Positions 54,872 to 57,521 are shown, counted from the first letter of the stretch. The stretch: DNA of 64,000 nt from Flavobacteriales bacterium 33_180_T64 (GCA_002162685.1 MAAQ01000023.1:4259-68258); one strand, 5' to 3'. The notes: generated from the letters alone by a model not told the origin. Numbers and translations: made by a program.

Positions 54872-54939
54872 ATCTTCAGGTTTAGGTTCTTATTTAAATA
54901 TAAGGATAGTATTTATTGTTGAATAGATTCAAAAATAAA

Positions 54940-55737
54940 ATGATGACCAAACTATTAGTGGCACTATGTCTTTTTGTAGTCCTAAGTTTCGTGTCCTGTA
55001 AAGAAGAAAAACAAAAAGTAGATACAAGTGAGTCTAATATACTTGTCGTTGATAGCTTAGTTGTTTATCAGACTGATAATTTAATGATTAGGAGGCTATC
55101 TAATCATATTTATGAGCATGTTTCTTATTTAAATACTAAGGATTTTGGTAAGGTTGGTTGTAATGGAATGTTGGTTGTGAATGAAGATAAAGGGATTCTT
55201 TTTGATACTCCAACGGATAACCAAAGTTCATTAGAATTAATAAATTTTGTAACTCAAGAGTTGAAAAGTGATATAGTAGCTGTTATCCCAACTCATTTTC
55301 ATGAAGATTGTGTTGGTGGAATAGAAGCGTTTGAAAAGCAAAATATTCCAATGTATGCAACGAACCAAACTATAGAATTATTAAAAAAGAAGGGTCAAAA
55401 TTTCTCTAAGCCTATAAACAATTTTGATAACAGTCTCACCTTAGATATTAAAGGCAAAAAAGTTTTTGCAACCTATTTTGGAGAAGGGCATACTAAAGAT
55501 AATATTATAGGATATTTCCCAGAGAATAATACCATATTTGGTGGATGCCTGATTAAGAAAGTTGGAGCAGGTAAAGGGAACTTGGAAGATGCAAACACAA
55601 ATGATTGGTCTGAAACTGTTCGCAAAATCAAATTGAGATATCCAGAAGTTGAAATTGTTATTCCTGGTCATGGAAAATGGGGAGGAATAGAGTTGTTGGA
55701 CTATACAATAGAGTTATTTGAAAAAAGTAATATATAA
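54940..55737 (+). CDS. Subclass B1 metallo-beta-lactamase, lipoprotein
   Basis: THFHEDC (HxHxD), GHT, GGCLIK, GNL and PGHG: all six B1 zinc ligands are present. Lipobox FVSC. Confidence 0.9.
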   Translation: MMTKLLVALCLFVVLSFVSCKEEKQKVDTSESNILVVDSLVVYQTDNLMIRRLSNHIYEHVSYLNTKDFGKVGCNGMLVVNEDKGILFDTPTDNQSSLELINFVTQELKSDIVAVIPTHFHEDCVGGIEAFEKQNIPMYATNQTIELLKKKGQNFSKPINNFDNSLTLDIKGKKVFATYFGEGHTKDNIIGYFPENNTIFGGCLIKKVGAGKGNLEDANTNDWSETVRKIKLRYPEVEIVIPGHGKWGGIELLDYTIELFEKSNI

Positions 55738-55739
55738 AT

Positions 55740-55765
55740 GCATCTTTTTTATAAGATTGTCGTCT
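55740..55765 (+). promoter_or_regulatory. Candidate ECF-sigma promoter
   Basis: GCATC (55740-55744), 16-nt spacer, CGTCT (55761-55765), 30 nt upstream of the Cys-rich ORF. Confidence 0.5.
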
Positions 55766-55794
55766 ATTAGGTGAATCAATAAAAATAATATATT

Positions 55795-55896
55795 ATGAAA
55801 AATACCGAATGTACTTGTAATTGTGAAGGCTGTAAAAGTGGAGACTGTAAAAACTGTTCTTGTGAGAATTGCTCATGTAACAATTGCAACTGTTAA
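55795..55896 (+). CDS. Metallothionein-like 33-aa peptide, absent from the ORF track
   Basis: MKNTECTCNCEGCKSGDCKNCSCENCSCNNCNC*: 11 Cys, no His or aromatic residues. A-rich initiation region. Confidence 0.85.
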   Translation: MKNTECTCNCEGCKSGDCKNCSCENCSCNNCNC

Positions 55897-55912: not shown

Positions 55913-55958
55913 AAACAGAACTTAATTAGTGACAACCTACTAAAAGGTTCTGTTTTTT
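55913..55958 (+). terminator. Interrupted hairpin with T tail between the Cys-rich ORF and the sigma gene
   Basis: AAACAGAAC...GTTCTGTTT outer stem, TTAGT/ACTAA inner stem, then TTT. Confidence 0.5.
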
Positions 55959-55971
55959 AGTAATATAAAGT

Positions 55972-57077: not shown

Positions 57078-57521
57078 ATGTATATAGATGCGCTCAATTG
57101 GAAGATTTTAAAATGTATTCAGCTTAATGCGAGACAGTCTAATGCTCATATTGGACGTCAAGTTGGGATTAGTTCTCCAGCAGTTTCAGAACGTATTAAA
57201 AAAATGGAAGATGCTGGAATTATTGAAAGTTATAATGCATTAGTATCTCCCTTTGAAACTGGGTATCAATTAAAGGCTTTGATTACACTTCGAGCTTTTA
57301 TGGGAATGTTAAAACCGTTTTTAGTAAAGGTAAAAACCTATGATGAGGTTATTAATTGCTATCGTATTACTGGTAATGAAAATATTGTGATGGAAGTAGT
57401 TTTAAAAAATCAAAAACACTTAGAGTCATTTATTGATCAATTGATCGTTTATGGGGAAACCAAAACCCAAATTATATTATCTCATGTTGTAAAGCATAAC
57501 GAAGTGAAGCAATTAAAATAA
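57078..57521 (+). CDS. Lrp/AsnC-family regulator
   Basis: NARQSNAHIGRQVGISSPAVSERIKKME HTH, CYRITG. Confidence 0.93.
   Translation: MYIDALNWKILKCIQLNARQSNAHIGRQVGISSPAVSERIKKMEDAGIIESYNALVSPFETGYQLKALITLRAFMGMLKPFLVKVKTYDEVINCYRITGNENIVMEVVLKNQKHLESFIDQLIVYGETKTQIILSHVVKHNEVKQLK

Follow-up and report, generated by a model that had tools for sequence, protein, structure and literature searches.

The window analysed here, a stretch of 64,000 nucleotides from Flavobacteriales bacterium 33_180_T64 (GCA_002162685.1, MAAQ01000023.1:4259-68258), a genome of the genus Psychroserpens, carries a compact cassette in which a promoter, a very short cysteine-rich gene, a hairpin and a gene for an ECF sigma factor follow one another in this order (Table 1). 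The cysteine-rich ORF had been predicted to be an unannotated metallothionein-like gene, and it does translate as described, with 11 Cys among its 33 residues and neither His nor aromatic residues; the A-rich start context that had been noted is borne out as an A/T-rich one, with aataaaaataatatatt preceding the ATG. The promoter begins 2 nt past the stop codon of a gene for a metallo-beta-lactamase, and its -10 element ends 28 nt 5' of the ATG of the peptide gene.

Table 1. The cassette and its flanking genes, with positions counted from the first nucleotide of the window.
Feature	Position	Strand	Details
Subclass B1 metallo-beta-lactamase gene, lipoprotein-type	54916-55737	+	NF033088, 254 bits
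ECF-type promoter	55739-55766	+	-35-like TGCATC(TTTTTT) at 55739-55750, with TGCATC at 55739-55744; -10-like CGTCTA at 55761-55766
Cys-rich peptide gene, 33 codons	55795-55896	+	MKNTECTCNCEGCKSGDCKNCSCENCSCNNCNC; ATG start; stop TAA at 55894-55896
Hairpin (55913-55955) and U-run	55913-55961	+	-15.3 kcal/mol, z = -2.2; between peptide stop and sigma start
SigZ-like (ECF238-type) ECF sigma gene, 179 aa	55972-56511	+	Pfam Sigma70_r2 and Sigma70_r4_2
Gene for a protein of 142 aa	56568-56996	-	Convergent to sigma gene; no Pfam or NCBIfam match
Lrp/AsnC regulator gene	57078-57521		

A conserved cysteine-rich peptide gene

In a six-frame scan of the 3.75-Mb genome, this ORF has the highest Cys content among all ORFs that start with ATG, and the sole other ORF with 11 Cys is a hydrophobic frame of 44 residues; such richness in Cys is far beyond chance for this genome. 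We recovered 90 distinct orthologous coding sequences, all of 32-34 codons and nearly always of 33, which have the consensus MKNxECTCNCxGCxxGNCxNCTCENCTCxNCNC. The ATG, the TAA, the length and the spacing of the Cys residues (CxCxCxxCx4CxxCxCxxCxCxxCxC) are conserved across them, the 11 Cys being kept in 989 of the 990 cells of the alignment, and TGT and TGC alternate in 11 of the 11 Cys columns. T7, G16, T22 and N32 are nearly invariant despite variation at third positions, and His, Phe, Tyr and Trp, which do not occur in the window peptide, are rare among the orthologues and restricted to variable positions. The pN/pS ratio is 0.29 overall and 0.56 for non-Cys codons, and the summed entropy amounts to 17.4, 16.4 and 35.5 for the first, second and third codon positions, respectively, so that the third position shows about twice the variation of the other two. 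Taken together, the pN/pS ratio, the codon-position entropy and the retention of Cys through synonymous swaps indicate a translated frame under purifying selection. The original prediction had named homologues as the place to check the Cys pattern and the reading frame, and both are retained there. The substitution pattern over codon positions in the 90 orthologues is not that of a chance ORF or of a signal on the opposite strand, and we have very little doubt that the peptide gene is real.

The peptide shares with metallothioneins a low molecular mass (33 residues, and 32-34 in its orthologues, where metallothioneins stay below about 10 kDa) and a Cys-rich sequence of CxC and CxxC units with few or no aromatic or His residues. 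No Pfam or NCBIfam model matches it: when 30 members of the peptide family were compared with the Pfam metallothionein families, PF02069 included, none matched at E values up to 10, and a profile search of the PDB with the peptide alignments returned a single, compositional match (E = 3.5). The Cys/His zinc-finger-like ligands that define the SmtA/BmtA profile PF02069 are not found either, as the orthologues contain no conserved His. The peptide is thus unrelated in sequence to SmtA/BmtA, as had been expected, and the further statement that characterised bacterial metallothioneins are longer is correct, given that the SmtA-type proteins comprise about 56-60 aa with about 16% Cys, compared with 33 aa and 33% Cys here (PMC13578184). 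An AlphaFold2 model of the peptide, computed from a 57-row alignment and without metal, has no confident fold (pLDDT 63.5, pTM 0.28), which is to be expected of a peptide that folds only around metal and is therefore compatible with metal binding without being proof of it.

Distribution and synteny of the cassette

A protein search identified full-length orthologues without stops in 10-11 of the 36 other genomes of the genus. At the level of the family, a profile search of Flavobacteriaceae detected the peptide in 62 of 401 genomes and 50 of 302 genera, each time as a single copy, and a scan of named genome records yielded 70 loci with the peptide gene. The carriers among these named records are marine Flavobacteriaceae throughout and belong to Psychroserpens, Lacinutrix, Winogradskyella, Polaribacter, Lutibacter, Aquimarina, Olleya, Formosa, Algibacter, Mariniflexile, Bizionia and other genera. 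A sample of 401 genomes from across the phylum contained no peptide match outside Flavobacteriaceae. Of the proposal that the gene represents a distinct Bacteroidota metallothionein family, the distinct, unannotated and conserved Cys-only family stands, and its extension to Bacteroidota at large does not, since in the phylum sample it is confined to Flavobacteriaceae. Protein databases hardly contain the family: eight orthologues looked up as exact sequences in a collection of 15 billion proteins were all missing from it, and a profile search of 1.84 billion representative proteins gave only 4 matches, all of them unnamed singletons and 3 with wrong, longer starts. Separately, a Logan contig (SRR28275268; L184:2155-2307) encodes a relative of 50 aa (...ESCTCSCEGCKDGNCADCSCEDCECSGCSC) with an N-terminal extension of 20 residues; it sits among Toprim and PD-(D/E)XK nuclease genes without an adjoining sigma gene and may belong to a mobile-element context.

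In 38 of 40 and in 68 of 70 loci, the peptide gene is directly followed by the sigma gene in the same orientation, in line with the synteny for which the original prediction had suggested to look. Within the genus, the peptide and an orthologue of the sigma factor (63-72% identity) occur together in the same 11 genomes, that of the window included, and both are missing from all the other genomes searched. Among the genomes of the phylum sample, the 4 other Flavobacteriaceae with a strong sigma match are the same 4 that have the peptide. Because the two genes are adjacent, their co-loss can be a single event, and the co-presence and co-absence seen in the genus could reflect few events of deletion or gain. 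The patchy spread over 50 genera would argue for repeated co-inheritance. In a relative without the cassette (L189), the next conserved gene follows about 50 nt after icmF and leaves a clean empty site. At two loci, L041 (G383:C106) and L042 (G166:C69), a Cys-rich ORF is found without the sigma gene and without the promoter; L041 has an intact peptide gene in the same icmF/142-aa gene slot, as if the sigma gene had been deleted, a hint at an independent function of the peptide.

The recurrent neighbours (icmF, the gene for the 142-aa protein, Lrp and MFS) were named by similarity to genes of the window. We considered icmF, which encodes a B12/cobalt enzyme, as a possible part of the module and rejected it: it is conserved in 45 of the 70 loci and is present also where the cassette is absent, as befits backbone synteny. 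The gene for the 142-aa protein and the Lrp/AsnC gene, both conserved in 36 of the 70 loci, are backbone synteny as well, as they occur also in cassette-less genomes at 76-89% identity. The B1 metallo-beta-lactamase, a zinc enzyme, was likewise discarded as a module part; it is inserted between icmF and the cassette in the window genome only, more than 100 related loci lacking it at this position, and its nearest named families, CIM, CHM and BMHC, all score far under their cut-offs. Genes of the ars, cop or mer type were not found in the conserved neighbourhood of the 70 loci.

The promoter, its other targets and the intergenic hairpin

The promoter follows the consensus TGCATCTTTTT-N11-CGTCTA, or in a wider form TGCATCTTTTT-N11-cGTCTatTAtaTGaAc, which occurs in 92 of 99 loci, and the distance from the end of CGTCTA to the ATG is 24-28 nt in 84 of these 92. 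A -10 element of the CGTC type is typical of ECF sigma promoters and unlike the Bacteroidota housekeeping promoter. When a position-weight matrix of 45 nt was built from 88 promoters and applied to the 3.75-Mb genome, it found one promoter site (score 46.3; runner-up 14.9), and a loose promoter pattern with up to 3 mismatches produced only noise in the window genome. With this single matrix site, the cassette looks self-contained here.

We also searched 72 cassette-bearing genomes with the core pattern GCATCTTT-N14-GTCTW, which gave about 18 matches besides the peptide promoters. Five of these matches, in 5 of the 72 genomes, lie 17-26 nt ahead of the start codon of a gene for a cation diffusion facilitator (CDF) or of an rpiB-CDF pair, a position into which a random match would fall with a chance of roughly 1 in 10,000 or less. 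The CDF genes behind the promoter core match Pfam Cation_efflux (E = 1e-48 and 3e-45), and their products have His-rich N-termini (MGHHHSHSH..., MAHNHENHH...). These sites represent at least three different arrangements and agree with the promoter core only, their scores with the 45-nt matrix ranging from -4 to 27 compared with a median of 45 for the peptide promoters. A link between the promoter core and CDF genes thus exists, and it appears that the same sigma factor also drives a CDF exporter in some genomes. The two CDF genes of the window genome, both in rpiB-CDF loci, are preceded by no promoter motif. These paralogous pairs (C23:443050-443799 and C8:24119-24868) are 67-73% identical to the CDF of L146, and other genera (L151) likewise pair ribose-5-phosphate isomerase B (rpiB) with a metal exporter.

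These results do not support the Cu(I) preference that had been suggested on the basis of CxC density, as the only other genes found behind the promoter core are those of CDF-type exporters of divalent cations with His-rich N-termini, and CorE2, which responds to Cd and Zn, is the closest characterised relative of the sigma factor that has a CDF target (PMC4937300). Together, this parallel and the link to CDF genes favour Zn, Cd or Co over Cu(I).

Between the peptide gene and the sigma gene, a strong hairpin occurs at the same place in nearly all of the 99 loci. Its stems are unrelated between lineages, so that it is the structure and not the sequence that is selected. At least 4 T are found in the 9 nt that follow the hairpin in 49 of 88 loci. 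A simple terminator scan returned none at 55913-55961 because the loop exceeds the limit of the scan. The hairpin is separated from the sigma gene by only 10-25 nt, which leaves no room for a separate promoter after it, and it is probably a leaky terminator or a stabiliser of the RNA end.

The sigma factor and related gene pairs

The best NCBIfam models for the sigma factor are those of SigZ (NF007215 and TIGR02959), and its scores of 164.4 and 147.7 bits lie below the respective curated cut-offs of 212 and 168.65. By its sequence it fits group ECF238, which was formed by merging the former ECF24 and ECF44 and includes SigZ of B. subtilis and CorE2 of M. xanthus (PMC7826278). Across 66 orthologues, the linker has H91 and C96 without exception (HxxxDCL), and the tail has four equally invariant Cys residues (C154, C155, C175 and C178), which form a Cys-rich C-terminal domain. 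We found no gene for an anti-sigma factor among the neighbours in the window or among the recurrent neighbours in the 70 loci.

To place the cassette in a wider context, 300 Bacteroidota genomes were searched with the sigma protein and 29 loci were examined, in 17 of which a Cys-rich mini-ORF adjoins the SigZ-like gene. In Flavobacteriaceae, this is the family of 33-34 aa upstream of the sigma gene; in other Bacteroidota families, there are peptides of 38-44 aa with about 13-15 Cys upstream of SigZ-like sigma genes, peptides of 26-27 aa with 9 Cys downstream of them, and CN-repeat peptides of 41-43 aa beside them. The 33-codon gene is therefore one clade of a broader pairing of SigZ-like sigma factors with Cys-rich peptides, of which we found no description in the literature searched. 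Examples of unannotated mini-ORFs (loci L159-L179) are MSIKGTCECTNCDCSTCDCVNCKANNCTCENCDCSKCDCCN, which lies upstream, and MKNLTECTCIECDCIVSPCDCSCCGG, which lies downstream and has its own TGCATCTTTTT...CGTCT motif. One distant Bacteroidota family has TGCATCTTTTT-N10-CGTCT about 40 nt before a SigZ-like sigma gene and again before the downstream Cys-rich mini-gene. As the motif there precedes the sigma gene and a different Cys-rich gene, the sigma factor is the common element and the likely reader of the motif, and its autoregulation through the motif would be the simplest reading of the sequences.

The window genome also encodes a second SigZ-like sigma factor (C17:5536-6078; tail GCC...C...C) within a cluster (C17:2700-8900) that comprises genes for an ArsO-family flavin monooxygenase (488 bits, cut-off 425) and a further FAD oxidoreductase, as well as genes for an MFS permease and a Cys-rich lipoprotein. 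Around this paralogous sigma gene, the related motif TGCATCATTTTTAAAA-N7-CGTCTTA occurs three times ahead of genes of the cluster, a second observation that ties the motif to the sigma factor. The cluster looks like an arsenic/metalloid regulon of the paralogue.

Discussion

We believe that the peptide is best explained as a metallothionein-like buffer that forms the main output of a self-activating, metal-sensing sigma factor, a reading to which we give a probability of about 55% and which draws on analogy with characterised systems. As the peptide has no sequence similarity to known metallothionein families, its assignment to the metallothioneins rests on composition and context and is plausible. 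The product of the ORF would be a cytoplasmic metallothionein-like peptide and the main, here apparently the only, output of the sigma factor encoded downstream, and the 11 thiols among its 33 residues might accommodate about four divalent ions in a cluster, by analogy with the alpha-domain of vertebrate metallothioneins. The sigma factor, which lacks an anti-sigma factor, would sense a thiophilic metal directly through the His and Cys of its linker and its CC...CxxC tail and, once loaded with metal, would direct RNA polymerase to TGCATCTTTTT-N11-CGTCTA. This would give rise to an abundant short transcript for the peptide that mostly ends at the hairpin, and some read-through into the sigma gene would provide positive autoregulation while keeping the sigma message scarce. 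The peptide would then bind the free metal and thereby switch off the response in a negative feedback loop, of which we infer metal binding, inducer and feedback, as well as the terminator function of the hairpin. The most likely inducers would be Zn, Cd or Co, since the sigma factor apparently also drives a CDF exporter in some genomes.

The strict adjacent pairing of the two genes resembles that of sigma/anti-sigma pairs, and the peptide might accordingly be a regulatory partner of the sigma factor that acts by contact, as an anti-sigma-like inhibitor or as a donor or acceptor of metal, rather than as a bulk buffer. No other regulator is encoded nearby, peptide and sigma factor are both Cys-rich, and no other cassette target is detectable in the window genome, where the cassette would otherwise regulate only itself. 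We nevertheless regard such a partnership as unlikely. Canonical sigma/anti-sigma pairs are typically coupled near 1:1, whereas the peptide-first order and the hairpin favour a large excess of peptide over sigma factor; moreover, the peptide has no anti-sigma domain signature, one genome (L041) retains the peptide without the sigma factor, and in the other family the peptide gene has its own promoter copy 3' of the sigma gene, like an ordinary member of a regulon.

It is about equally improbable that the peptide is a thiol sponge for a ligand other than Zn, Cd or Co, such as Cu(I), Hg(II), As(III) or a different metalloid. Good binding of Cu(I) and As(III) is a general property of CxC-rich peptides, and the second SigZ-like sigma factor of the window genome adjoins an ArsO-family monooxygenase behind a related TGCATCATTTTT...CGTCTTA motif; given this ArsO gene beside a paralogue in the same genome, the sigma family as a whole may respond to metalloids. 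In the clade studied here, however, CDF exporters are the only further genes found behind the promoter core, their His-rich N-termini are typical of divalent cations, and ars, cop and mer genes are missing from the conserved neighbourhood.

We give still less weight to a role in thiol or redox buffering, in which the cysteines of the sigma factor would register disulfide or electrophile stress and the peptide would serve as a source of sacrificial thiols or as an electrophile decoy. The five invariant Cys of the sigma factor would suit such a function, as would the DJ-1/PfpI, glyoxalase and MFS genes that lie further downstream in the window. These neighbours recur in only 7-21 of the 70 loci and on the other strand, however, and redox buffering would leave the CDF link unexplained; in addition, the fixed Cys spacing suggests a defined cluster geometry over generic thiols.

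A short ORF rich in Cys codons, a hairpin often followed by a T-run and a downstream gene formally have the layout of an attenuator, and the ORF could thus be a cis-acting leader peptide whose 11 Cys codons sense charged tRNA-Cys and, together with a terminator hairpin, gate the sigma gene. We consider this very improbable, because selection acts on the protein: G16, T7, T22, N32, the length and the Cys spacing are kept and third positions are free, and the pN/pS of 0.56 for non-Cys codons extends the constraint beyond the codons that an attenuator would need. Despite the conservation of the ORF, different lineages have entirely different stems, which argues against any conserved anti-terminator pairing; furthermore, the gated gene encodes a sigma factor rather than an enzyme of a cysteine pathway, and in another family the peptide gene lies 3' of the sigma gene. 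Least probable of all is that the gene product matures into a modified or secreted peptide such as a RiPP or bacteriocin. It is small and Cys-rich like some radical-SAM-modified precursors, but it has no leader or signal sequence, the first Cys following after only five residues, and in the 70 loci no gene for a maturation enzyme, a protease or an exporter recurs within 3 kb.

Returning to the metal buffer under a self-activating sigma factor, the cassette illustrates how annotation misses a conserved gene that is present in about one sixth of the genera of Flavobacteriaceae. If the peptide binds metal, it would represent, to judge from the literature searched, the first native family of metallothionein type in Flavobacteriaceae, and one that is smaller and richer in Cys than the bacterial metallothioneins described (about 60 aa, 16% Cys). 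For a metallothionein, regulation through an alternative sigma factor instead of a repressor would be a novel kind of wiring, and the poorly understood SigZ/ECF238 group would gain a defined promoter together with a target gene and a signal that can be tested. With a length of less than 800 bp and its apparently self-contained nature, the cassette is attractive as a part for metal biosensing or sequestration, and it could serve to indicate trace-metal stress in marine metatranscriptomes. More speculatively, SigZ/ECF238 sigma factors and Cys-rich mini-proteins might constitute phylum-wide and almost wholly unannotated two-gene homeostats, in which a sensor sigma factor would bind a thiophilic metal or metalloid through its own cysteines and turn on a thiol sponge, which competes for that ligand and so resets the sensor, and in which the peptide families (33 aa with 11 Cys here, 26-27 aa with 9 Cys, 41-44 aa with 14-15 Cys, and CN-repeat peptides) would be tuned to different ligands; we advance this broader idea tentatively and think it somewhat doubtful, and if true it would provide a first function for the orphan B. 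subtilis SigZ group.

Comparison with known systems

On the side of the regulator, the sigma factor resembles CorE2, CorE and SigZ in being an ECF sigma factor without an anti-sigma factor and with a Cys-rich C-terminal extension, here with the invariant CC...CxxC tail. Cd and Zn activate CorE2 by way of its Cys-rich tail, and CorE2 regulates the efflux of cations through a pump (PMC4937300, PMC7826278); the CDF genes behind the promoter core in five genomes would be a counterpart to that target. CorE depends on Cu and regulates its own expression (PMC4937300, PMC8999054). In both CorE and CorE2, a linker CxC is essential and the tail contains six Cys (PMC4937300), whereas the sigma factor described here has H-x4-C, that is H91 and a single C96, in the linker and four Cys in the tail; it is therefore not CorE-like (ECF44) in the strict sense, and metal sensing is ascribed to it by analogy. 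It differs from SigZ in scoring below the equivalog cut-offs. The literature searched reports no Cys-rich peptide target for CorE, CorE2 or SigZ, and it holds no description of Flavobacteriaceae metallothioneins or of SigZ-linked Cys-rich peptides.

On the side of the peptide, the closest likeness is to single-domain metallothioneins. The alpha-domain of vertebrate metallothioneins has 11 Cys and holds an M(II)4 cluster, and the Cu-metallothionein of Neurospora is another single-domain form. Like these, the peptide is very small, consists of about one third Cys in CxC and CxxC units, has no aromatic or His residues, is rich in Asn, Ser, Thr, Lys and Gly and shows no confident fold without metal. 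It differs from them in its bacterial origin and its own Cys pattern, with no detectable homology, and its metal binding is predicted. SmtA and BmtA, for their part, use His ligands and have a zinc-finger-like fold. With these proteins and with MymT of mycobacteria the peptide shares the arrangement of a small cytoplasmic peptide adjoining a dedicated regulator, its role in metal handling being a predicted one. Compared with SmtA/BmtA, it combines 33 aa with 33% Cys and no His, and a putative alternative sigma factor control takes the place of the SmtB/ArsR repressor. The cassette is plausibly described as a peptide of metallothionein type that belongs to a new sequence family and is controlled by an ECF sigma factor.
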